Source of the DNA: an uncultured Erysipelotrichaceae bacterium
GTDB lineage: Bacteria; Bacillota_I; Bacilli_A; RFN20; CAG-826
DNA length: 64,000 bases
Direction of reading: 5' to 3'
NCBI GenBank assembly: GCA_900317295.1
Contig: ONGB01000005.1
Location: 340-64,339, forward strand
In this document: positions 3,652 through 21,249 of the stretch, piece by piece
Layout: each line of letters starts with the position of its first letter
How positions within the stretch are numbered: the stretch's first letter is position 1
Position numbers and translations under genes: made by a program
Notes under the pieces: generated by a model
The model's input: only the letters and a program-made list of their open reading frames with translations
Told to the model about the DNA's origin: nothing
Database searches by the model: none

Positions 3652-5058
3652 ATGAATAGTTTTTCTTTAAGCCAGTTTTCCCGGCACTACTGCAAAAGGA
3701 AGGGCCTGGGTTCCTTCTCCTTATATTTCGAAAGCGACGGAGAAGAGTTGATAGCTCACAAAATATATTTTGATCCAGTGACATTTTTGGATTTCATCCG
3801 AGATGTGCCGAACGCAAGACTAAACCTTCGAGATGTTCCTCAAATAGTTGCACCAATCGAACTTCGAAATGCCATCATTCAGGCAACCCGCGACAAAGTG
3901 ATTAGAGATGATACCGTCAACGAAAAAATACAGCAATTTATGGCGGTGCACGGCGATAGCCTTGAGACTAACGAGAGATTGCTTTACTTTGCCCAAGGAG
4001 AAAAAGCCGATCGTGCCGAAGAACTGGCGGATAGTCTTAACGAGATATTCTATGGCCTGGCATTTGATTCCAAATCGCGCAGTAATACCCGAAGCGCTCT
4101 TTTCGATGATATCGAAAGGGCTTTTAGCCTGTACGAAGAGGCGGCGAAAGACCCCAAGATTCTTCAAAGTCCCGTCGTTGAGGAGAATATCGATACCGAA
4201 CCAGAACAATATGAGTTTAGGATCTATTCCGTTGGGCAAGCCAATTGCTCGGCGCTGATTCGATACATCGATCAGGACAAAAAGGATTATCGAGTCATCG
4301 TGGTATTCGATTTCGGACGAGCCCGCAGAAAGAGGTCTGCCAATCCCTCCCTCCAAGAGATGATCAATAAAATCGACGACCGCACAACCATACTCATATC
4401 CCATTTTGATAACGACCACATCAACAACATTACCAACTACACGCAAAAGAAGACGGATCGTTGGTTATTCCCGCCGTGCACAAACATGCGATCGCAGAAG
4501 GCAAACTTACTCTTCTATGCTCTTTTGAAATGCGCACAACGGAAAACCAGCAACGGATCGATCAGCATCTATAAAACGCCTTTTAACCTATCTCCGCAAA
4601 TACGCATCACGCAATACAAAGGCACGAGAAAAGGAGACCCTTACCAATCGACCGTTTGCAATTCCGCCTGCCTTGTCACATCCATCCGCGCCGAACACGT
4701 TTCAATCCTTATACCTGCGGACGCTCTCTATGAGGAGTTTGATGCGAGTGTGCAAAACGAATCCTATACACACATACTCATCCCCCACCACGGCTGCTAT
4801 TATCCGCTTGCGGCATGCGGGGCAATATCCAAAATGCTTGATAGCGAAAGAGTACACGGTGTCGTCCAATGTGGAACCAATCGCTATGGCCATGCAAACG
4901 TAGAACACCTTCGCCGATATCGTGACGTGCATTATTTCTATGGGACCAAATTCTATCAAGATAGAAACACCGTCGCGAAAAAACCAAGAAATGCTCACGG
5001 TGGATATGGCGATTACTATTTTATTTCGTTTAATGGTATCAATTGTGGTTACCGTTAA
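3652..5058 (+). CDS. metallo-beta-lactamase-fold protein (ComEC C-terminal-like) with an unknown ~190-aa N-terminal region
   Basis: 468-aa ORF. MBL-like motifs occur in order: FRIYSVGQANCSALI, ILISHFDNDHINN (HxDxDH variant), NSACLV, ILIPADA, LIPHHG. The N-terminal ~190 aa match nothing I recognise. Confidence 0.7.
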   Translation: MNSFSLSQFSRHYCKRKGLGSFSLYFESDGEELIAHKIYFDPVTFLDFIRDVPNARLNLRDVPQIVAPIELRNAIIQATRDKVIRDDTVNEKIQQFMAVHGDSLETNERLLYFAQGEKADRAEELADSLNEIFYGLAFDSKSRSNTRSALFDDIERAFSLYEEAAKDPKILQSPVVEENIDTEPEQYEFRIYSVGQANCSALIRYIDQDKKDYRVIVVFDFGRARRKRSANPSLQEMINKIDDRTTILISHFDNDHINNITNYTQKKTDRWLFPPCTNMRSQKANLLFYALLKCAQRKTSNGSISIYKTPFNLSPQIRITQYKGTRKGDPYQSTVCNSACLVTSIRAEHVSILIPADALYEEFDASVQNESYTHILIPHHGCYYPLAACGAISKMLDSERVHGVVQCGTNRYGHANVEHLRRYRDVHYFYGTKFYQDRNTVAKKPRNAHGGYGDYYFISFNGINCGYR

Positions 5059-5352: not shown

Positions 5353-5654
5353 TTATTTCGCCACGGCGACGCGGACCGTCACGTAGTCTTTTTCCTCCTT
5401 CTTCCTTGCCCTGCCCTCCTGAACGAAGATGTAGTGCTTCCAGAACAAAGGGAAGGAATGAATTACGGAGTATTCCTCGGCGGGGTCGCCCTGCTTCCCC
5501 TGCTCGCCGAAGGACGGCTTGAATACATCGCATAACCGTTCAGATATGCCTCCAAAAGCCTCTCGTCGCTGTTTTTAATAGCCTTAATATTTACGCATAC
5601 GCATGTACTACCTTTTTCTTGTAGATGTCGTAGTATAAGCAGCCAATCATTCAA
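5353..5654 (-). pseudogene. possible degraded small gene (frameshifted)
   Basis: MNDWLLILRHLQEKGSTCVCVNIKAIKNSDERLLEAYL is in one frame. A protein-like tail, VFKPSFGEQGKQGDPAEEYSVIHSFPLFWKHYIFVQEGRARKKEEKDYVTVRVAVAK-stop, is in another frame and has no start codon of its own. Confidence 0.25.
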
Positions 5655-5679
5655 AGGGCCAAAGGGGGAGGGGAAGCGC

Positions 5680-5885
5680 CTACAAAACGTTGGCTACTGC
5701 ATTTAGATGGCAATTTTGAGATAGTGCTCTACTAAAAAATATGCAAAATCCGTGCGGTAATCGTGCGGCGAATAAACGTATCTTTGAAAAAAGTCTCAAC
5801 GGCGCCGAGACAATTTCGTTTGGCGGAGCACGATGCGGGATGGTTGAGCTCTGCTTTCTCGGCGTCTTCATCTCCATCACTTCCA
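5680..5885 (+). repeat. diverged copy of the IS30-family 3' end region (matches 9856..10075)
   Basis: Anchors ATAGTGC, CGGTAATCGTGCGG and CGATGCGGG occur with the same 34- and 76-nt spacings as at 9897/9931/10007. CGGCG..CTTCAT follows in both copies. Confidence 0.4.
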
Positions 5886-5967: not shown

Positions 5968-6486
5968 TCAGCCCAAATAGAAATCAAGGAGCGCTTTGAT
6001 TTTGCCTCGGATGACCGTGGGGTCGGACAGGCGTTTGTCGACGAATGAGGTGAACGCCATATTGACGATCGCCCCGCTTAGCAGGCAGAAATCGTATCCG
6101 TCTATTTCGTAGTCGCTTTGAAACTCCCGCGCCAGCGCCTCCTTCAGGCTTTCCATGCAAAGCAGGAAGGCGTACCTCGAGGAGGCGAGGTTGCGCAACG
6201 CCTCCTTGTTCTTCTCGTTGAATGATGCGACGGCCTCGGACAGGGCCGCGGACCGGCCCTCGCGGAAGTCCAGGCTTTTGAATTCGGCCTCTATCCTATC
6301 GGCGAATATGTGGCAGAAAAAGTCGTCCTTGGTCGGGAAGTGGGAATAAAACGTCACCCTTTTCACACCGGCCTCAAGGCAGATGTCGCCGACGGCGATA
6401 TCCTCCAGCGCCCGGCCCTTAAGCAATTTGAACGCCGCTTTCGCGAGGCGCTCGTCAGTCAATCTTCTCTGTTCTTTTTTGGTCAT
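5968..6486 (-). CDS. TetR/AcrR-family transcriptional regulator
   Basis: 172-aa ORF with an N-terminal HTH (AAFKLLKGRALEDIAVGDICLEAGVKRVTFYSHFPTKDDFF). It is divergent from the 6572 gene. Confidence 0.85.
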   Translation of the reverse strand: MTKKEQRRLTDERLAKAAFKLLKGRALEDIAVGDICLEAGVKRVTFYSHFPTKDDFFCHIFADRIEAEFKSLDFREGRSAALSEAVASFNEKNKEALRNLASSRYAFLLCMESLKEALAREFQSDYEIDGYDFCLLSGAIVNMAFTSFVDKRLSDPTVIRGKIKALLDFYLG

Positions 6487-6487
6487 G

Positions 6488-6554
6488 GGATAATCATATA
6501 CAATTTATAGGTTTTGTACATTTTCTTTCGTATCCTGGATGATACAATTTCAGG
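6488..6554. promoter_or_regulatory. direct repeats in the TetR/6572 divergent intergenic region (candidate operator or promoter elements)
   Basis: GGATAATCATATACAATTTATAGG (6488-) and GGATGATACAATTTCAGG (6537-) share the ATACAATTT core at 6498-6506 and 6542-6550. Confidence 0.3.
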
Positions 6555-6571
6555 CTCTTCAGGAGGAATTT

Positions 6572-7408
6572 ATGAAAAAACGTTACTACATCACCATCTT
6601 TAGCGCCATAGCGTGCCTCACCATCGGCGCGGCATCTTGCGGCCTTCTCGCCAAAACCCCTTTGGAGGTATCGGCGCAATCATCTTATTGGAAGGACACC
6701 ACCATGAATGAGATTTCCGAATTGCCCGCTTCTTATGTCGGGCAAAGCGGGAACGGTTCCTTGAAGAAAGGGGACTCCTTTAACCGGAGAGGGGTCAGCA
6801 ATGGCGCCGTTGAAGCTGCCCAGATTGTCGCTACGGGCGGATATATCTACGACGAGTATAACTACAAGGTAAATAAAATCACCGAAATCAAAGGGGTTTA
6901 TTCCTACCAAAGCCCTTGGAAAAATAAGGACTCCGTTATCAATCTGCAGCAAAATTACACCTACGCTGAAACAGATAGTTGGTCTTTTCACAGCGACTAC
7001 AAATATGATTTCGAGACTATGAAGCAAATCGGAGCCAAACTCGGATTGGGCGACATAGGGCTTGAGGCGAAATCTTCGAACTCCCTTGGTTTCTCTCATT
7101 CGTTCGGCTACTCCTACACAAGCACAAAGGAAAGATCCATAAGCGATACCATCACCTGGAACATCGATCAGGTTCCAAACGGAAAGGATTTCACCATCGG
7201 ATTAGTTGGCACATACTATGTCGTGGATTACTCCTACAATTGGAAAACGGTTTGGTCGACCTCCTTCATGCTTTGGATTCCGGCAACCAACCAAAGGGAA
7301 AGTGGCAACGCAAAATGCATTATTGCCAATCCTGCTAATTTCACATTGACCCTTTTGGTAAAAGAAGGTAAATATGCCAGCCAGAATCTTTACAAATACC
7401 TCATCTAA
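6572..7408 (+). CDS. secreted or lipoprotein-like beta-rich protein; paralog of 921..1733
   Basis: Start moved to ATG 6572 (GGAGGA 5 nt upstream). MKKRYYITIFSAIACLTIGAASCG is a signal or lipobox-like N-terminus. The mature part is S/T/Y/N-rich. The stop lies 4 nt before the ABC ATPase start. Confidence 0.65.
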   Translation: MKKRYYITIFSAIACLTIGAASCGLLAKTPLEVSAQSSYWKDTTMNEISELPASYVGQSGNGSLKKGDSFNRRGVSNGAVEAAQIVATGGYIYDEYNYKVNKITEIKGVYSYQSPWKNKDSVINLQQNYTYAETDSWSFHSDYKYDFETMKQIGAKLGLGDIGLEAKSSNSLGFSHSFGYSYTSTKERSISDTITWNIDQVPNGKDFTIGLVGTYYVVDYSYNWKTVWSTSFMLWIPATNQRESGNAKCIIANPANFTLTLLVKEGKYASQNLYKYLI

Positions 7409-7412
7409 CCCC

Positions 7413-8315
7413 ATGGAACCGATCATCGAAGCCCGCGAAATAACAAAGCGATACCGCAAAGCAAGCGTTGTGGATGGAGCATCCATCCGCGTCCTTCCTG
7501 GACAAATCATCGGCCTCATCGGCCCAAATGGCGCCGGAAAGACCACCTTGCTCCGTCTACTTAGCGGGCTGGTCGTCCCAGATTCCGGGGAGATTTCCTA
7601 CTATGGCCAGAAGAAGGGAAAGGGCTTTGAGTCCGCCAAATCCAAGATCGCTGTCACGGCGGACGGTCCTAGCCTTTATCCGCTGCTTTCCGCCAAAGAC
7701 AACATCAAGGCCTATGCCCTAGGCCGCGGCTTCCCGATAAGCGACGACGAGGTGGAGGATGCCCTGCGCTGCGTCGGGCTAGAACCTGGTAAAAAGGTCG
7801 CGCGGAATTTTTCCATGGGCATGAAGCAACGCCTCTCCATCGCGATGGCCCTCTCCGGAGGGTGCGAGGCGATTCTTCTCGACGAGCCGTTCAACGGTCT
7901 TGACCCGATGGGCCTCAAGCAGATTGTCACGCTCATCCGGAGGATCAACGCGGAGAGGGGGATCGCCTTCCTCATCTCCAGTCACAACCTTCCCGAGCTC
8001 GAAGGGCTTTGCGAGAGCTTCGTCTTCTTGGAGAAGGGGAAGGTCAAGAAAGCTTTGTCCAAGGACGAGTTGAAGAAGAAGGAACGGCGCATCGTCTCGT
8101 TCCTGGCCAAGGACGCCGAAGGATGCCGCAGGCTCCTAAGCGAATCCTCTCTCTCCTTCGAGAGGAAGGAGGGATTCTTCCGCGTCGATTGCGACGGCGA
8201 CCCCCTCGGCCTCGTCGATTCGCTTAGGCGTGGCGGCGTTGAGATCAGCGACCTCTCCATCGAGAGGGAGGGCCTATTGAGCGTGTATTCGGAAGGGAGG
8301 GCCTACGATGAATAG
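7413..8315 (+). CDS. ABC transporter ATP-binding protein (ABC-2/DrrA-like)
   Basis: Start set at MEPIIEAREITKRY. Walker A GPNGAGKTT, signature FSMGMKQRL, Walker B ILLDEPFNGLD. Confidence 0.9.
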   Translation: MEPIIEAREITKRYRKASVVDGASIRVLPGQIIGLIGPNGAGKTTLLRLLSGLVVPDSGEISYYGQKKGKGFESAKSKIAVTADGPSLYPLLSAKDNIKAYALGRGFPISDDEVEDALRCVGLEPGKKVARNFSMGMKQRLSIAMALSGGCEAILLDEPFNGLDPMGLKQIVTLIRRINAERGIAFLISSHNLPELEGLCESFVFLEKGKVKKALSKDELKKKERRIVSFLAKDAEGCRRLLSESSLSFERKEGFFRVDCDGDPLGLVDSLRRGGVEISDLSIEREGLLSVYSEGRAYDE

Positions 8316-9669: not shown

Positions 9670-10075
9670 GCTCTTATGTCATTCTCATTTGTACGGTTAC
9701 GTCACGCAAAGAAAGGACAACGAAGACATGAAAGAGAAAAAGAGACTGGGGCACGACGACAGGATCAACCTTCAGGCGCTACATCTACGCACGGGAAGGG
9801 CCGAAACGGGATCCAAAGGTACATGTACCCCTTGGATGCAGAAGGCACTTCACCCCGCTAAAAAGGATGTCAGCAGAAAGCGTGTCGGAAATTTGTATAG
9901 TGCGCCGAAAGAAAAGTTCGGAAATTCGTTCGGTAATCGTGCGGTGATTTTCCCCAAAATATAAGAAAACGCCGAACTAGTCGACGTTTTTGGGAACAAT
10001 GAAGCGCGATGCGGGGAGTTAGATTACCACCGAATGTTTCTTCGGCGACATCTTCATAATCCCCATTTTTATCGC
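9670..10075 (+). mobile_element. miniature internally deleted IS30-family derivative (5' and 3' gene ends fused)
   Basis: 9704-9777 repeats 1862-1936 (ACGCAAAGAAAGGACAA...CTGGGGCACGACGACAGGATCAACCT). The ORF 9668..9964 joins MKEKKRLGHDDRINLQA to an IS30-like C-terminal tail, SRKRVGNLYSAPKEKF. The downstream part matches 5680-5885. Confidence 0.45.
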
Positions 10076-10107
10076 CCACTTTAAATTTTGCCTAACGTAT
10101 GGCGGGG

Positions 10108-10141
10108 AACAAAAAGGAAACAGAAGCATCCCGATGTTTCC
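10108..10141 (-). terminator. rho-independent terminator of the ATPase-TOPRIM-helicase operon
   Basis: Minus strand: GGAAACA-TCGGGATGCTTC-TGTTTCC followed by TTTTTGTT, 16 nt after the stop at 10157. Confidence 0.6.
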
Positions 10142-10156
10142 GCGATGGCAATCGAG

Positions 10157-10513
10157 TTAAGCGTCTTTTGAAACAAGCCCGGATTTAATAAAAGATTCTA
10201 ACAAATGATAGTCGTTGTTCGGCTGGGGAACCAGTTGCTCAAGCACATTAACTTCGGTTTCGGGGGACCAGTATATGGAGACATCTTTTTTTGCTCTGGT
10301 TATCGCGGTATAAAAGACGTTTTTTGTGATGAAATCAACCATGTTCTTAGAAATGACAATTCCAACATCATCATATTCAAGGCCCTGAGATTTATGAATG
10401 GAGATGGCGTACGCGGTTTGAAACGGGATCTCTTTGACGTGTCCTTGATGGCTGCCCCCGCGTCGTTTATTAACGATGACGATCATATAATGCTGGCCGT
10501 TTTCTTGGACCAC
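10157..10513 (-). CDS. SF1 helicase C-terminal segment (UvrD_C_2-like); separated from 10624..12918 by a frame change
   Basis: YAISIHKSQGLEYDDVGIV and FYTAITRAKKDVSIY are SF1 motifs V/VI. This frame stays open upstream to about 10650 (LYVKEFFADRLDESVKGQIDSVTISDDGYEASFKIRLDKPVDGSPNYKV), so it overlaps the end of the upstream ORF. Confidence 0.7.
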   Translation of the reverse strand: MVQENGQHYMIVIVNKRRGGSHQGHVKEIPFQTAYAISIHKSQGLEYDDVGIVISKNMVDFITKNVFYTAITRAKKDVSIYWSPETEVNVLEQLVPQPNNDYHLLESFIKSGLVSKDA

Positions 10514-10623
10514 TTTGTAATTGGGCGATCCGTCGACTGGTTTGTCTAAACGGATTTTAAACGACGCTTCATATCCATCGTCCGAGATGGTAACAGAATC
10601 AATTTGTCCCTTTACGGACTCAT

Positions 10624-12918
10624 CTAATCTGTCTGCAAAAAATTCTTTGACGTAAAGATCACGGGATCGTTTTTCTTAAAGCATCGTTGTCTCCACAAAA
10701 TCACGTTTTCCGGATTGCCGCTTTGAAGAAGCCTGTTTAAGAAATTAATGCCATAAATTCCCTCGTAATTTAAGCAAAGGATAACGTCATGTTTACTTTG
10801 CGAACTCACAATATCTTTACAAAGCGGATGAACAATATGATTCTCTGCCAGTATTGTTCTTATGACCTCTATATCGTGTTCATTTTTAAGGCCACGAACT
10901 CTATTCCAAAGGGTCCGAAGCTGCGGGATGCCCGTACGATAACTATTGGCCAAGTTATAGGCGAAGTCTTCGTAGACAAAATACCCGAACCAACCGCCAT
11001 AGTCCACGGGCTCTAGTTGTTCTGGGTCGCCTGCAAAGATGACACCGGCATTAATTGCTATACATTTCCGTAACGCTCGAGTAATATCACGATTCGAGAT
11101 GACGGAGCATTCATCGAATATCACCCATTTCGTATCTGGTTTTGGGTTTTTGCAAAGAAAGGTTTTTAATGACCAACAATTTGTATTGGCCCTTTTTCGC
11201 AATGTGTCAGAAAGACGACCAAGTGCCGCGTTTGCGTTTGCGACGAAACATACGCGGTCGTCTTTCATCATCTCGCAGAACAATTCGATGGTCTTTGATT
11301 TGCCGGTCCCAGCAGGACCATGAAGTAAAGCGACTTTTGAAGAAACAAAAGCTTTTTTTAAGAAAGCCCGTTTAGCAGGATCATCAATCGTTGCGGTTTT
11401 TAAGAAAAGATCGGCTTTTTGTGGGTAATCCAAAACACCCTGCTTTCGAAGCTGTTGGACGTGTTCGCGTATCTCTAGGATTGATTGGACCTTGTCTACG
11501 GAATAAAGATATTGGCCTGCAATCCCAATTCTCAAAGATTTCACTGCGTTTGAAATAGTGTCGTTGTAACGATTGACTAGCATTGCAATCTCTTCGGTTT
11601 TTGCCTTTTCATCCTCCCCTGAGCACAAGAAGAAAAAGTTTTGTACGGGAATGAAGAGTTGTTTGCTATACGCAGGGTGGCGATGTAAGCGCATCGGGAT
11701 TTCTGCTTCGGGCTTTTTGTCTAAGAGGTTAGCACGAACCATCATTGGAATTGATGTAATCGAATCCGGCAAACATGCCACTAAAGGCTGTTGCTCAAAT
11801 GTGTAGCACTTTGTCCAGAAAAAAGAGTCTCCATAGCGTTTGCCATCTTCTGGGGCTCGGCATGATTTGACGGTGCTTTCGCGCATAGAACAAAGCAAAT
11901 AACGAAGCGTCCGCCGAAACGGGAACCCTGAATTCGGCTCGATTAATCTCTTCAGGTCTGAAAGAATTAGGTAGAGTTCGTTCTTTGGGTTGTTTCCAGT
12001 TATCAGGTCGAGCGCTTTTTCAAATTTTTCGTTTTCCAGAAGGTCCAAAACCATCCACGCTTTATCGGTTAACAAGCGCATCAAGTTACCATATGCCACC
12101 CCTTCGCCTTGTATGATGTGGCGCAGGCCAGATAACGCAGCTATATTGTTTAGTATCTTGTATGGTATGGCCACCACATAATCCAAGATGACCATAACGT
12201 TAATTTGAATGCCTAAGCACACGATGTCGACGTTTTTGTATTCTGTCACTCGAATAGGATACGGAGTTTTTATTTCTTTGATAGAAAAGGCGAGAAAGGA
12301 TGTATGTTTAGAGGCTTCTTCGCCGTACACCGCTAAACCGACTTCATAAAACGACATGCCATCAAGGTGCCTGAACGAATGCTTTGTAACTACATATCTC
12401 TCATCATCGTCTGAACGGGAGTTCGCTTCTTTTTTTATTCCCTTAAGCAAACTTGAGTACGTCAATTTGGAGTCTTCGTCCAAATCCAATGGGTAAAACT
12501 GAAAACGCTTGATAATCTCAATTCCAAATTCATCCAAAACAAATTGCTTGATGTCCGGCACATGTCTGGCGATAGGCAAAAATGTGCGCGTTCCTTCATC
12601 GACCTGATAATTGGCGTCGTGATGCGCGGCATTTGACATTTTGTACCATTCATCAATCAGCCTGTATTGTTTGTTGGCGGCACAGTAGTTGATGGCCCGT
12701 TTAGTACACTCCATTCCTATACTGGAATTGAAATCTTCGGGCTTTTCCTTCTCGAAAACCATTTTGGCAATCGTGATAATCAGCGTTCGAAACTCATCTT
12801 TGATTGCCGCAGATACTCGCTCCCGATCCTCGACGCTGTTGATCACATCATCTAGTTGTTTGTCAATGCGATCGCTGGCGCCGATGAGTTCCTGCTTCAG
12901 CGTTTCGGCCGATTTCAT
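10624..12918 (-). CDS. large protein: ~520-aa unknown N-terminal region fused to an SF1 RecD/Dda-like helicase core (AAA_30-like)
   Basis: Walker A LLHGPAGTGKSKT, motif II VIFDECSV, motif III AGVIFAGDPEQLEPV. Nothing recognisable precedes the Walker A motif. The start lies 8 nt after the TOPRIM gene stop. Confidence 0.75.
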   Translation of the reverse strand: MKSAETLKQELIGASDRIDKQLDDVINSVEDRERVSAAIKDEFRTLIITIAKMVFEKEKPEDFNSSIGMECTKRAINYCAANKQYRLIDEWYKMSNAAHHDANYQVDEGTRTFLPIARHVPDIKQFVLDEFGIEIIKRFQFYPLDLDEDSKLTYSSLLKGIKKEANSRSDDDERYVVTKHSFRHLDGMSFYEVGLAVYGEEASKHTSFLAFSIKEIKTPYPIRVTEYKNVDIVCLGIQINVMVILDYVVAIPYKILNNIAALSGLRHIIQGEGVAYGNLMRLLTDKAWMVLDLLENEKFEKALDLITGNNPKNELYLILSDLKRLIEPNSGFPFRRTLRYLLCSMRESTVKSCRAPEDGKRYGDSFFWTKCYTFEQQPLVACLPDSITSIPMMVRANLLDKKPEAEIPMRLHRHPAYSKQLFIPVQNFFFLCSGEDEKAKTEEIAMLVNRYNDTISNAVKSLRIGIAGQYLYSVDKVQSILEIREHVQQLRKQGVLDYPQKADLFLKTATIDDPAKRAFLKKAFVSSKVALLHGPAGTGKSKTIELFCEMMKDDRVCFVANANAALGRLSDTLRKRANTNCWSLKTFLCKNPKPDTKWVIFDECSVISNRDITRALRKCIAINAGVIFAGDPEQLEPVDYGGWFGYFVYEDFAYNLANSYRTGIPQLRTLWNRVRGLKNEHDIEVIRTILAENHIVHPLCKDIVSSQSKHDVILCLNYEGIYGINFLNRLLQSGNPENVILWRQRCFKKNDPVIFTSKNFLQTD

Positions 12919-12926
12919 TTGGAAAT

Positions 12927-13622
12927 TTATTCCTTCCCGCGATATGTATCCACCAGAGCCTTGGCATCCTCGGTCAGGGATTCATAATTATCAAGGAGAA
13001 AATAGACGAGGTTCGACGTCGCCACCAGTGAATTCGTTCCATTTTTAATGTAATTCCAGCTGTCTTGGAATGAATGAGAATGAGATTTTTCCGCCACAAA
13101 GAGAGCACGTACCAAAGCCTCATGATTGTTTTGAGTGTTCTTGTACATTCTAATTGCCGCCGATTTCTTGAAGGCATCTGAGGGGTTTTGATTATTGTCA
13201 AAGACATGGTCGATATTACATGAGTTGTAATAAAGCATGATGTGTCCGCTTGCGAGCAACCTATTTATCGTTTTGGCTTTTTGCCGATGCTCGGCGCGAA
13301 CAGATTGCGGATCCGCTGCTTCAATATGGTCGGAACAATAGACGATATGTCCGTTTCCTTGCTTTATTAGTCCTTCATCGATGAAGCAGCCATCAGTATC
13401 GCAAACCTGCACTATCATGTCGAAATCCGAGAAAACATAGAGTTTGTCTTTGGCAAGGAGGGCCGCGATTTCCCTGTCGGTATCCTCCGCGTAAGTTTTT
13501 GACTTTAAGATGTCGGTTCCAAAAGGAACGATTTCAAGCTTGCCAGGGTCAAAAAGACCCTTCAATGCCGCTAGGCGCTGACGGTCGAAAGGGCCTTCTA
13601 CGAGAAACAGGCATCGCTTCAT
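12927..13622 (-). CDS. small TOPRIM-type protein (RloB/DUF4435, AriB/AbiLii-like)
   Basis: 231 aa. Conserved Glu in the first strand (CLFLVEGPFD, E9) and a DxD motif 66 aa later (VQVCDTDGCF). YYNSCNIDHVF resembles the RloB SNPCFE region. ATGA start/stop overlap with the ATPase gene. Confidence 0.6.
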   Translation of the reverse strand: MKRCLFLVEGPFDRQRLAALKGLFDPGKLEIVPFGTDILKSKTYAEDTDREIAALLAKDKLYVFSDFDMIVQVCDTDGCFIDEGLIKQGNGHIVYCSDHIEAADPQSVRAEHRQKAKTINRLLASGHIMLYYNSCNIDHVFDNNQNPSDAFKKSAAIRMYKNTQNNHEALVRALFVAEKSHSHSFQDSWNYIKNGTNSLVATSNLVYFLLDNYESLTEDAKALVDTYRGKE

Positions 13623-15025
13623 CTGCTTTGCTCCTCCGGCGAAGACAAGCCAGCCACGATATCCTCGGTATTGACCATGTCGAAAAGTTTTGTGCCATCC
13701 TTTAATCCGGTCGCGATATATCTATAGTAAAGGTCGCGAAGGTTGTTGGTCTCGTGCACGTTAGTTATTTGCGTGAAAGCGTTATTGCTGTCCGTTGTCG
13801 AAAAGAAAACATGTTTATGGCTTAGTTTTTCCAAAACACGCATGTTATGCGATGTGAATATTAATTGTCCCATTCCAAAACTGCCAAAGGCATAAACGAG
13901 TTCACCAAGCAAGTATTCAAAGATGCCGCTGTCAAGCTCGTCGACAACCATCGTGCACCCTTCGTGGTTATAAGCATCAATAAACCCAGAAAGGATAGAG
14001 ATAATCTTTTTGATTCCGTTGGATTCGTATTGCAAAGGTACTGGCCCATTGCCTCGATTCGATGCCAGAACGAAATTGATGAAGCTGCTCTCAGGATCCA
14101 TCTTTCGGGGGTCGGGAACCATAACATTGATAATCTCGACTTTATAATTTGGAATGATGGCGGGCATAACCTTGTTTATGCGGTCTAAATTAGTTTTTAA
14201 AACTTCAAACTGAGCCCTTGGTAATTGATTTATCGCAAAAGGAATAAATAGATCCTGGCAAATAAATCGGGAAGGGTCATCCCCTTTTTCTTCCTTGAGG
14301 CGGAGACGAATGCCAACCTGATCGTTTTCGTTAAAATAGCTAATCGAATAAATAGCAAGACGAGATTCCGCGAATGTTTGTAAGTCAACAACCAGATTGT
14401 AATAATCGGGGAATGCCTCTTTGTTGCCTTCTAAGAGTGCTGAAAGATTTTTGCTGAAGACCGATGAATAAACGGCGGTCATGCCTTCGTTCTCATTCCC
14501 CGTGTCATGGACACATACATATTGGTAAATCGCCTGGTCTTTGGCGTCCATCCTCTTGAGGAAGGTAGGGTTAATCTTATCGGGGGCCGTGAACGAGAAA
14601 AGATTGGCCTTCCTTTCACGCTCGGCAAATTTCGTAAAAGAAAGTTTCTCGCTATAGACGCGGACGGACCTATTTTTTGCTCGCCCGATTTCGATTTCGT
14701 AAGTAGCGTAAGAATATGTATCACCGCGGCGCACCAAAAAATCTATCGCGATGGTAAAGGATTCGAAACCAGTTTGAATGTAATCGCAGATGGTGGGGTG
14801 CAATTCCCTGCCCGAAAGCAGAAACTGAATAATGCGCAAAGCTAGCAAAGCAGAAGTTTTTCCGGATCCGTTTTGCCCATAAATCCCCAAAAGCGGGGAT
14901 AGAGAAACATCATCGATAATCCCTTTTTCGACTTTTTTCTTCTCGGAGAAAAAAACTTCTCCAAATCCGATGTTCCGAAAATGAGACAAACGCACCGATT
15001 CTATTCTTACAATGCCAATTTCCAT
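13619..15025 (-). CDS. ABC/SMC-like ATPase of the AAA_15/AAA_21 type (AriA/AbiLi/RloA/OLD-N-like)
   Basis: 468 aa. N-terminal IESVRLSHFRNIG...LLGIYGQNGSGKTSALLAL (Walker A). C-terminal ESNGIKK signature-like motif, Walker B MVVDELDSGI, and H-loop LIFTSHN. Confidence 0.8.
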   Translation of the reverse strand: MEIGIVRIESVRLSHFRNIGFGEVFFSEKKKVEKGIIDDVSLSPLLGIYGQNGSGKTSALLALRIIQFLLSGRELHPTICDYIQTGFESFTIAIDFLVRRGDTYSYATYEIEIGRAKNRSVRVYSEKLSFTKFAERERKANLFSFTAPDKINPTFLKRMDAKDQAIYQYVCVHDTGNENEGMTAVYSSVFSKNLSALLEGNKEAFPDYYNLVVDLQTFAESRLAIYSISYFNENDQVGIRLRLKEEKGDDPSRFICQDLFIPFAINQLPRAQFEVLKTNLDRINKVMPAIIPNYKVEIINVMVPDPRKMDPESSFINFVLASNRGNGPVPLQYESNGIKKIISILSGFIDAYNHEGCTMVVDELDSGIFEYLLGELVYAFGSFGMGQLIFTSHNMRVLEKLSHKHVFFSTTDSNNAFTQITNVHETNNLRDLYYRYIATGLKDGTKLFDMVNTEDIVAGLSSPEEQSR

Positions 15026-15497
15026 ATTGCACTCCTCAGGCCGTTATAGTAGCAGTATTTTGTCAATATTTCAATAAAATGGTATAAAAAATACAAGATT
15101 TTTAAAATATTGTTAGTTAGCAAGTAAATCGCAACATCCGGCCGCGGCCTGTCGCGTTTCTCCCGCGAATTCACTTTTTGCTATCATTTTGATGCCCTTC
15201 AGACGGGGAAGGGAAAGGAAACGAAAGCATATAAAACACCTAAGACACCACGACAGGGTGCTCATCGAGTTCGAGATATCCGAGAGACTAGCGCGCCCGA
15301 AAACATGACCGCAAGAATCAATAGAAGGTTTGTCTTTTTCATTTGTCGTGTCCCTCTAATCCGCCACAAAACTGGCATTGACACTGAAGGTTCCAGCAAA
15401 ACTGCTGGAAGTGCGTCTTACTCGTAAAGAAACCCCTTCTTTCAGTTTTGTTTTAGCACCAAAAAAGAAAACAATCGGCTTATCCTAAAAGGGTTGA

Positions 15498-17039
15498 TCA
15501 ATCGCCGAAATCGAACCGCACTTTCGCGTGGTCCGCCTCCACTTCTTCAATATGGATGGAGAAATCGAAAGCCGACCCGTCGTGGAAGGAGAAATCCGCA
15601 TAGGTTTCTTTAGAGAATTCGCCGCCTTTTTGAAATAAGACATCGCGGCGAGAAGCGTTTTTCCCTGCGACGTTTTTATCGGAGGCGATGAAGTATTCCG
15701 GGAAGGTCGCGGTGTCGCTGGAGGCGTCCATCATCTGGATGAGATAGGAGTCGTTTTTGTATCTTCCGTCGCGGGGCTGCCCACCGCTATTGTCGTTATG
15801 TAGCCCTAAGACGTATCCTCCGCTTAAATCGGTAGACGGGGAGAAATAGGAGGTCGGGTTCACGAAGCCCGGCAAGAAGACGCCCAAACGCGCATCGACG
15901 TGATAGATCCGCACGCCGGATTTGTTCATCATCCGCATCGCGTTGTCCGAACGGGATTTGCCATCCAACCGGTTCAATCCCACAGGCGCGTAGAAATCGA
16001 CGAGAAGATATTCGTCGAACGGGGTGCCATTAAAAGAACGCTTCACGATCGCGCATTCCCCGTTATGGGCGAATTGATGGAGGGAGAGTTCGCAAGAGGA
16101 AGTCACATAAATCGGCTGGACCCAGTTCAGGAACATCTTGGAGAAGGCGTTCTCATCCCCGAGGGAGCAATCCATCATGTCCGCCCTCCCCAAAGGGGAA
16201 AGCCTGGAAAAGGCGCCGGATTGGAAGGTATCGTAATAGTCCTCTAAGCCGAATAGGTGCCCGGTTTCGTGGACGCAGGTATGGGAATCGACTGCGTTCC
16301 CGGAGGGATAAAGCATCGCGTAGGAGCTCCAAGACACGGGCGCGGGGTCATTGATCGTGAAGGCCCAGAACATCGAAGAACGGTCCGCTCCGGAGGAAGA
16401 GGTCGCGAAAGGCGCGGTATAGATGAAATAGACGGGAACGATCGGATTCCCGGTCACGGGATGGGTGAAGGCGTAGCCGACACTGGGGTCTTCGGGGAAA
16501 TTCGCATCATGCCAGGCGATCGCCTCGGCGTAGATCTGCTCCAAGGCGGCTTTCGTCGAAGCCGCGCCGGTTTTGCCCCTCAAGGCTTCATAGGAGAGGC
16601 TAGGCCTAAAGAAGGCGTGGTCCACGCCGCCTTTGATCTGCAGCCTTCCATAGGAACTCTTCTCGAAATAGGAGACCACGGAGGGGAATTGGTCTTGGTA
16701 GTCCTTCCCGAAGAAGGCCTGTTCAATATGGGAGATTTGCTTTTCTTTCCCCGGGTATTCCGCGAAATCGACGGGGATGACAAGAAGCTTCTGCTCCCCG
16801 GTGGAGGGAATATTCGCCTTCTTCGCGTGGGAAAGCGTCGCGTTCGGCACGCGGGGAAGATCGCCGGAGACGCAATGGATGGAGGCGAATTCGCTTCTTT
16901 TTTCATAACCCTCCCCTACTTCTTCAGGGAAAGGTTCTTCATTCAGTTCCCCGTATTCATAAGCGGCATATGGCGGGCGCGAGGATATGCACCCGCATAA
17001 CGCGAGCACGCATAGAAGTAAGACGGGGCGCTTGCTCAT
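15498..17039 (-). CDS. M6-family (immune inhibitor A-like) zinc metalloprotease lipoprotein
   Basis: Lipobox MSKRPVLLLCVLALCGC. Zinc site VHETGHLFGLEDYYD (HExxH plus downstream acidic residues). Confidence 0.75.
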   Translation of the reverse strand: MSKRPVLLLCVLALCGCISSRPPYAAYEYGELNEEPFPEEVGEGYEKRSEFASIHCVSGDLPRVPNATLSHAKKANIPSTGEQKLLVIPVDFAEYPGKEKQISHIEQAFFGKDYQDQFPSVVSYFEKSSYGRLQIKGGVDHAFFRPSLSYEALRGKTGAASTKAALEQIYAEAIAWHDANFPEDPSVGYAFTHPVTGNPIVPVYFIYTAPFATSSSGADRSSMFWAFTINDPAPVSWSSYAMLYPSGNAVDSHTCVHETGHLFGLEDYYDTFQSGAFSRLSPLGRADMMDCSLGDENAFSKMFLNWVQPIYVTSSCELSLHQFAHNGECAIVKRSFNGTPFDEYLLVDFYAPVGLNRLDGKSRSDNAMRMMNKSGVRIYHVDARLGVFLPGFVNPTSYFSPSTDLSGGYVLGLHNDNSGGQPRDGRYKNDSYLIQMMDASSDTATFPEYFIASDKNVAGKNASRRDVLFQKGGEFSKETYADFSFHDGSAFDFSIHIEEVEADHAKVRFDFGD

Positions 17040-17090
17040 GAGCGCTATTCTAAACTAACGGGGAGAAAACATAAACACGCGCAGGCATAC

Positions 17091-17116
17091 GAAAACCCGC
17101 CTCTTGCGAAGCGGGT
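17091..17116 (-). terminator. candidate terminator after rpoC
   Basis: Minus strand: ACCCGC-TTCGCAAGAG-GCGGGT followed by TTTTCG. The T-run is short. Confidence 0.5.
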
Positions 17117-17136
17117 CATTCGTTTTCGAATTCGGC

Positions 17137-21249
<4,113 letters not shown>

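Follow-up and report, generated by a model that had tools for sequence, protein, structure and literature searches.

A mobile three-gene cassette joining an AbiLi-type ATPase/TOPRIM-like gene pair to a divergent PDC-S53 helicase, with a predicted role in defense

The window analyzed here, a 64,000-nucleotide stretch of contig ONGB01000005.1 from an uncultured Erysipelotrichaceae bacterium, carries three co-directional, closely packed minus-strand frames between 10.1 and 15.0 kb. They encode a predicted ABC-type ATPase (gene 1), a TOPRIM-like putative nuclease (gene 2) and a superfamily 1B (SF1B) helicase that also has a large N-terminal module (gene 3). We favor, with about even confidence, the reading that the trio is a horizontally mobile defense cassette of about 5 kb composed of two modules that are independent elsewhere. 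Genes 1 and 2 would be its autonomous core and the helicase would have been captured once. The only loci with a helicase behind the pair are the window and the related L001/L002, L012 and L003/L004, which together form the window clade. Elsewhere the pair is found without the helicase and the helicase family, PDC-S53, without the pair, and the trio is therefore a single-origin combination restricted to a narrow clade.

The three genes are tightly coupled. The start codon of gene 2 overlaps the stop codon of gene 1 in an ATGA at 13619–13622 and a gap of 8 nt (12919–12926) separates gene 2 from gene 3, both as described in an initial annotation of this DNA made from the sequence alone. The AT-richness noted there is likewise borne out, with a GC content of 43.5% in the operon compared with 53.8% in the window and 60% in rpoBC, and of 29.6% in the 115 nt before gene 1.

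Gene 1 displays a Walker A motif (GQNGSGKT, residue 50), a signature-like SNG (335), a Walker B motif (MVVDELD, 359) and an H-loop (SHN, 392), and matches the Pfam families AAA_21 (1e-11), AAA_23 and AAA_15. The best PADLOC match is AbiLi (PDLC02335, 8.4e-30), a partial match covering model positions 53–277 of 326, followed by weaker matches to AriA (PDLC02980, 2.4e-11, along the length of the protein), PDC-M07A and HEC-01A (1e-8). Distant members of the gene 1 family likewise have AbiLi as their best PADLOC match (1e-28 to 2e-29). In agreement with the original assignment, these motifs and model matches identify gene 1 as a predicted AbiLi/AriA-type ABC ATPase. We also sought the lactococcal AbiLi/AbiLii pair in a plasmid collection using tblastn with gene 1 as the query, and obtained no Lactococcus match.

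That gene 2 is a TOPRIM protein similar to RloB, with E9 and D75xD77 as its signature, had also been proposed, and this view is upheld by structure and motif rather than by sequence models. Neither gene 2 nor 31 of its homologues gave anything above noise against Pfam, PADLOC, NCBIfam (June 2026) and PHROGs, and an hmmsearch of the gene 2 profile against PDB sequences returned no match. Among 32 homologues, D75 and D77 never vary and E9 hardly does. The AlphaFold2 model (pLDDT 94.8, predicted template modeling score 0.90) has the topology β1-α1-β2-α2-β3, with strands at residues 2–9, 29–36, 69–75 and 129–133 and helices at 11–23 and 48–59. E9 is positioned at the end of β1 and D75xD77 after β3, so that the model displays the glutamate after strand 1, the DxD after strand 3 and the four-stranded α/β core of a TOPRIM domain. 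The sole significant fold match, obtained with Foldseek against viral models, is a full-length match to an RloB-like phage protein (E 4e-4, probability 1.0). RloB and DUF4276 are TOPRIM-superfamily nucleases with the same E...DxD signature (PMC12065111), and AbiLii is a predicted OLD-type TOPRIM protein (PMC13064643). No AriB structure was among the 50 PDB fold matches listed for gene 2, and an hhalign comparison of the gene 2 profile with a DUF4435 protein gave a probability of 0.2% with the DxD region alone aligned. Judged by its modeled fold and conserved motif, gene 2 is a TOPRIM/RloB-like putative nuclease.

Gene 3 had been described as a fusion of about 520 aa of unrecognizable sequence to a RecD/Dda-type helicase. 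The SF1B helicase and the large N-terminal module are indeed present; the frame, however, is broken by a 1-nt deletion that had been overlooked. The ORF at 10624–12918 runs for 764 codons to a stop, with the other helicase motifs located in a different frame down to 10157, while the addition of a single T to the T6 run at 10637–10642 yields a protein of 920 aa. At this site the orthologues have T7 (L012) or C+T6 (L001) and are both intact at 920 aa; the intact orthologues of 920/923 aa are P0001, L012 and P0002. Compared with L012 (98.8% identical), all three indels in the window are homopolymer length changes, and the 8 differences past the frameshift are all synonymous (0 non-synonymous), so the lesion either arose very recently or stems from an assembly error. 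The frameshift may thus be either a sequencing or assembly error or a real 1-nt deletion, and with the frame of gene 3 broken only the gene 1 and gene 2 pair is certainly intact in the window.

The repaired protein matches the PADLOC candidate PDC-S53 (PDLC05035) end to end (E 1.2e-171, residues 7–909 of 920 aligned with model positions 4–892 of 900), which places the N-terminal 520 aa in a catalogued family and overturns their description as unrecognizable. The C-terminal half, matching AAA_30 (7e-19) and UvrD_C_2 (9e-11) in Pfam as well as TIGR01448 RecD2, is an SF1B helicase of the RecD2-like type, and the invariant helicase residues K540, D602, E603, Q634 and R875 are retained. For the orthologue P0001, the AlphaFold2 model (pLDDT 87.6) has RecD2 (3gpl) as its best fold match (E 6e-20, TM 0.70), with RecD, Pif1 and Dda among the further top matches; this whole-protein search is dominated by the helicase domain. 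The N-terminal module alone returned only noise against Pfam and PDB sequences. In the window clade, this module shares 19–22% identity with that of stand-alone PDC-S53 proteins and keeps 17 of 26 near-invariant columns, compared with 71–100% (median 93%) in the main PDC-S53 family, which puts it below the range of any main-family member. The nine replaced positions include H101, Y176, R252, E255, G334, Q353 and H386 and are identical in both lineages of the clade. E255 is the glutamate of the VSIRPCE motif, which is absent from the window clade. Gene 3 is best classed, from its sequence, as a divergent PDC-S53 member. Of the Pfam families named in the initial annotation, AAA_15, AAA_21, AAA_30 and UvrD_C_2 were recovered in the trio, but DUF4435 and RloB (PF13707) gave no match.

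In order to follow the pair we started from gene 2 and surveyed 35 homologues, their contigs and 15 metagenome loci. A gene 1 homologue is located directly upstream of the gene 2 homologue, usually overlapping it, in 25 of 25 metagenome or assembly loci with upstream DNA; L026 was left unscored as its contig begins inside gene 2. Three distant RefSeq plasmid copies from Bacillus and Ruminococcus albus (24–28% identity) show the same overlapping arrangement, annotated as 'AAA family ATPase' and 'hypothetical protein'. Every pair-only locus with enough downstream DNA has the pair without the helicase. This includes L147, whose gene 2 is 61.5–63% identical to that of the window and which is sister to the window clade in a neighbor-joining tree. 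The lack of a helicase in L147 and the restriction of the trio to one clade are consistent with a single helicase gain. The next gene in some other pair loci is convergent or a housekeeping gene (e.g. rpsJ in L009). Others continue with a Dsr1-type SIR2 protein after a gap of 2 nt (PADLOC 6e-60) or, in two loci, with a KAP NTPase after gaps of 45–47 nt, one of which matches PDC-S49. The pair thus repeatedly has a defense-type third gene. On the Bacillus mycoides plasmid NZ_CP136374.1 (L149, 7122–9397), a PARIS-like pair of AAA family ATPase and DUF4435 follows a distant gene 1/gene 2-type pair and precedes xerS, which puts two different ABC and TOPRIM pairs in tandem.

Gene 3 as the point of departure gives a different picture. 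When its N-terminal module served as the query of an exhaustive search, 196 clusters at 50% identity were obtained, nearly all of about 900 aa, in which the window clade is represented by just P0002 and a few short fragments; all other members are at most 25% identical. We then scanned genomes using a hand-made IUPAC DNA pattern for W-x-[VI]-SIRPCE-x-x-N, which covers about 14% of the family and returns 8-kb chunks that are not centered on the match. The scan gave at least 120 loci from many phyla, and 119 of the 120 listed are true PDC-S53 members. Among those listed, 65 loci have at least 2.3 kb of upstream DNA and are informative, and none of these 65 contains a gene 2 relative or an adjoining gene 1 relative. 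The linkage of gene 3 homologues to the pair, on which the case for a three-gene system had been made to depend, is therefore missing from the family at large and present in all lineages of the window sub-clade. Main-family PDC-S53 genes instead adjoin type I restriction-modification (R-M) genes, namely HsdR of about 980–1030 aa with HsdS and HsdM (L033, L034, L066, L093, L098, L101, L110, L118 and others). This is as expected because PDCs are defined by embedding, being a set of 145 candidates discovered as genes embedded within BREX, DISARM and type I R-M loci (bioRxiv 10.1101/2024.01.29.577857). A literature search for 'PDC-S53' found no paper. In actinobacterial members (L027, L034, L039, L081, L082, L099, L143), a gene encoding a helix-turn-helix (XRE) and ImmA/IrrE-like metallopeptidase protein lies 3–5 nt upstream on the same strand, and may form a regulated two-gene variant with PDC-S53.

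Comparison of the relatives by blastn delimits the cassette. L001 is 97.9% identical to the window over 10101–15121 and L012 is 98.8% identical over 9704–15144, and beyond these homologous spans the flanks differ or are rearranged. Because the stretch of homology stops at the borders of the operon, with different flanks beyond them, the trio moves as a unit of about 5.0 kb. In the more distant L003, protein identity to the window drops to 78% for gene 1, 69% for gene 2 and 53% for gene 3, yet the order of the trio, the overlap and a gap of 8–9 nt are kept despite this divergence. There, the neighborhood consists of polysaccharide synthesis genes and is unrelated to that of the window, so the co-occurrence anticipated for the three genes extends to a second lineage and a different genomic context. 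The ratio of non-synonymous to synonymous polymorphism is 0–0.31 for all three genes, which are under purifying selection. Together with the N-terminal replacements common to both lineages of the clade, the kept arrangement, the joint movement and this selection favor a functional unit. Window segments 1–1796 and 5382–5698 share 91–97% identity with the cassette flanks of L012, in changed order and orientation, indicating that the cassette sits in a rearranging variable region.

We infer a role in defense for this cassette, and a mechanism can be outlined by analogy. The first module, genes 1 and 2, would be a two-gene ABC-ATPase and TOPRIM system of the AbiL/RloAB/PARIS class. In PARIS, the AriA ABC-ATPase scaffold keeps the TOPRIM nuclease AriB sequestered and frees it upon sensing a phage protein, after which AriB cleaves tRNA (PMC11464382, PMC12409363, PMC13064643). 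If the pair behaved similarly, the gene 1 ATPase would form an oligomeric scaffold that keeps the RloB-like TOPRIM nuclease inactive while sensing a phage cue, and ATP-dependent release would allow the gene 2 nuclease to attack tRNA or DNA, aborting the infection. The second module, gene 3, would have been captured once by the ancestor of the clade directly downstream of the pair, and would be co-transcribed with it. The helicase would most likely be accessory. It might read DNA ends or replication intermediates and be coupled to the pair in a Gabija-like manner, for which the coupling of GajB to GajA serves as a model (PMC10568477, PMC10781630), or it might act as a second line of defense.

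Several observations weigh against this reading. The anti-phage function of all three families is itself predicted and PDCs are candidates only, and HEC-01, a candidate with a comparable two-gene logic, gave no protection in E. coli tests (bioRxiv 10.1101/2024.01.29.577857). IMG/VR viral contigs scanned for the pair and for the helicase contain no relatives. The trio is found in two diverged lineages only, so that its conserved synteny could reflect simple inheritance. As for gene 2, its structural similarity to the RloB-like protein is modest (TM 0.42/0.44), and Foldseek against the PDB gave nothing significant, with topoisomerase II/IV TOPRIM domains and the OLD C-terminal region at E 0.08–0.2 and probabilities of 0.2–0.33. 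No sequence-level link from gene 2 to RloB, AbiLii, DUF4435 or DUF4276 was found. The signals at both ends of the operon add little: the promoter-like site upstream of gene 1 is sigma-70-like by consensus match alone, with a site count not above that of shuffled controls, and the hairpin just past gene 3 has a fold energy of -13.9 kcal/mol, corresponding to z = -0.89 compared with shuffles.

Alternatively, the operon may consist of two independent systems, an AbiL-like pair and a PDC-S53 helicase, that are stacked in a defense island, share nothing but a promoter and are co-inherited by adjacency. Both the pair and PDC-S53 stand alone elsewhere, and other pairs are followed at 2–47 nt by a Dsr1-like SIR2 protein (6e-60), a PDC-S49/KAP protein or another KAP NTPase. 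Embedding and same-strand stacking of defense genes are moreover common (bioRxiv 10.1101/2024.01.29.577857). We nevertheless consider simple stacking rather unlikely, since no member of the helicase sub-clade occurs by itself, three contexts share the exact boundaries of the cassette, and the loss of family-conserved N-terminal residues together with faster divergence suggests a changed role of the helicase. These same changes could be read as signs of an obligate three-component 'split Gabija', in which ATPase, TOPRIM protein and helicase act in one complex, the N-terminal module of the helicase, its ancestral activity abandoned, now only senses or loads, and the TOPRIM protein is the sole effector. 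The window-clade helicase occurs only with the pair, every such locus being a trio, and it has diverged strongly from stand-alone PDC-S53. Nine of the 26 near-invariant N-terminal positions are lost, including the polar H101, R252, E255, Q353 and H386, but all helicase motifs are kept. A spacing of 8–9 nt is too small for a separate promoter, and ATPase-TOPRIM plus an SF1 helicase is the combination on which Gabija and class 2 OLD systems are built (PMC10568477). However, the pair exists without the helicase in all pair-only loci with enough downstream DNA, including the sister locus L147, the trio has a single origin and is limited to two independent lineages, and the helicase would not be needed for genes 1 and 2 to stay intact if the frameshift is real. 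Both modules are autonomous elsewhere, and other pairs precede other single-gene defense proteins, which speaks against the trio as a functional unit in general. We accordingly judge an obligate complex to be unlikely.

A role outside immunity, in DNA repair or in the maintenance of mobile elements such as plasmid or integrative conjugative element processing or addiction, seems very improbable. Gene 3 resembles RecD/TraA-type helicases, large plasmids carry distant pairs close to XerS or tyrosine recombinases, and the low-GC cassette is mobile. The best matches, though, are to the defense models AbiLi, AriA and PDC-S53, the neighbors are defense genes, and inspection of ORFs and Pfam matches revealed no relaxase, replication or integrase gene in the cassette. 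The two-module cassette with an autonomous pair and a helicase captured once is thus the reading we retain. A further speculation, which goes beyond it and which we regard as unlikely, is that the gene 1/gene 2 family is a modular 'hub' that repeatedly recruits autonomous single-gene immune proteins (PDC-S53 helicase, Dsr1-type SIR2, KAP NTPases) as a co-transcribed third subunit. The helicase of the window clade would then have lost the polar N-terminal residues because it signals to the pair or is guarded by it, and would represent an SF1B analog of a split Gabija that is in no catalog.

Comparison with described systems shows where the cassette fits and where it departs. Like AbiL/RloAB, the pair consists of two overlapping genes with the ABC ATPase first and a TOPRIM-like protein of about 230 aa with E...DxD second. 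Unlike in AbiL/RloAB, gene 2 matches no PADLOC or Pfam model including RloB (PF13707), and a helicase gene is added in the window. We liken the pair to AbiL/RloAB, with gene 2 as a putative member. The split into ABC ATPase and TOPRIM nuclease is shared with PARIS, and gene 1 matches AriA, less well than it does AbiLi; AriB, however, is a DUF4435 protein of about 35 kDa, whereas gene 2 has 231 aa and no DUF4435 match, so the cassette is not PARIS. With Gabija and class 2 OLD systems it has in common ABC ATPase, TOPRIM nuclease and SF1 helicase-like activities predicted in one operon (PMC10568477, PMC10781630). GajA, in contrast, fuses ATPase and TOPRIM, which are separate ORFs in the window, and GajB is a UvrD/PcrA/Rep-like SF1A protein, whereas the helicase of the window is RecD2-like SF1B with a 520-aa N-terminal module. 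Matches to the GajA and GajB models are confined to short P-loop or C-terminal motifs (E about 1e-5): residues 39–64 of gene 1 for GajA (E 5.7e-5) and the last 50 or so residues of gene 3 for GajB. The cassette is therefore not a Gabija system: its ATPase and TOPRIM are separate proteins, and its helicase belongs to SF1B instead of SF1A.

The helicase shares with PDC-S53 the end-to-end model match and an architecture of about 900–920 aa, but the window clade is an outlier that is always located behind an ATPase/TOPRIM pair, while all 65 informative loci of the main family among those listed lack such a pair. HEC-01, an ABC ATPase and TOPRIM candidate embedded in Hma, differs in its second gene, as gene 2 has no HEC-01B match. 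We also considered Menshen NsnABC, in which NsnA carries ParB-DUF262 and NsnC an inPIN N-terminal domain (PMC12065111). It was rejected, as the operon has no ParB-DUF262 or inPIN protein and the NsnB match reaches just 0.028. PADLOC v2 lists no system with the three-gene content of the window, and a literature search found no paper describing the combination. The suggestion of an undescribed architecture holds in this sense; what it describes is a mix of catalogued or known-type modules with a single origin in a narrow clade, and not a widespread system.

If the helicase works with the pair, the cassette would be a natural 'split Gabija' and a route to understanding how ABC-ATPase/TOPRIM sensors couple to helicases and how stand-alone immune genes turn into subunits of larger systems. 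Practical value is modest, as the functions of all three families are only predicted and the trio is rare. The gene 2 family, an unmodelled TOPRIM/RloB-like partner of AbiLi-type ATPases by fold and motif, is the most useful by-product of this analysis. Its members include over 30 homologues from metagenomes as well as copies on RefSeq plasmids that are labelled 'hypothetical', and since the family has no model, such two-gene systems are invisible to the PADLOC, Pfam and NCBIfam models used here.

The features of the locus and the third genes found behind other pairs are listed in Table 1.

Table 1 Features of the cassette in the window and third genes in other pair loci
Feature	Position	Strand	Description
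Gene 1	13619..15025	(-)	Predicted 468-aa ABC-type ATPase of the AbiLi/AriA class; intact ORF
Gene 2	12927..13622	(-)	231-aa TOPRIM-like (RloB-like) putative nuclease; intact ORF
Gene 3	10157..12918	(-)	PDC-S53-type, about 520-aa N-terminal module and RecD2-like SF1B helicase; frameshifted, 920 aa when intact
Frameshift site in gene 3	10637..10643	(-)	T6 run at 10637–10642; 1-nt deletion gives a 764-aa product
Promoter-like site	15046..15074	(-)	TTGAAA-17-TACTAT with extended TG; lies some 20 nt upstream of where gene 1 starts; consensus scan
Weak terminator-like hairpin and U-run	10108..10141	(-)	Just 3′ of the gene 3 stop
Cassette extent common to relatives in other contexts	10101..15121	(-)	blastn
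Third genes behind pairs	L019 8678–10378; L014 5093–6808; L020 1138–2901		Dsr1-type SIR2 or KAP-family NTPases

A GAGGAG ribosome-binding site is located between the promoter-like site and gene 1. At the other end, the hairpin at 10108–10141 had been taken for a clean terminator; it is weak, and a terminator scan did not flag it. Both L001 and L012 retain the hairpin at the cassette's 3′ end, although their cassettes are about 98% identical to that of the window over the whole length. In the window, the cassette is bracketed at 10103–10129 and 15204–15230 by two direct copies of a 27-nt repeat, which agree at 22 of 27 positions. We considered these copies as att sites and rejected them. The upstream copy, 15204–15230, is missing in L001 and L012, so the repeat is not a feature of the cassette, and the downstream copy belongs to the cassette in both.

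Of the surroundings described in the initial annotation, the IS debris is unsupported, as the 153-aa ORF found there has no match in a Pfam search. The position close to the rpoBC block is correct, but a 513-aa M6-peptidase-like gene intervenes between the operon and rpoC. A 468-aa ORF at 3652–5058 on the plus strand, likewise without a match in a Pfam search, was considered as a second copy of gene 1 and rejected because it has the same length but an unrelated sequence. The distance from the cassette to rpoC is about 2 kb (region 15498–21249 of the window), and in L009–L011 the pair lies directly upstream of rpsJ-rplC of the S10 operon; both insertions thus adjoin core transcription or translation operons.

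Further defense genes are found near homologues of the pair, among them Cap4 and KAP in L007. In L003, a Hachiman-like HamA with a DEAD/ResIII helicase is encoded at 14427–17343, a distance of 1.7 kb downstream from the diverged trio, confirming the defense-island setting. In L001, a second ABC ATPase of 457 aa (AAA_21 5e-19, AAA_15 3e-12) is located 0.9 kb downstream of the trio (6025–7971). It overlaps a 189-aa partner without a Pfam match, and the two may be another unmodelled pair of an ATPase and a small effector.

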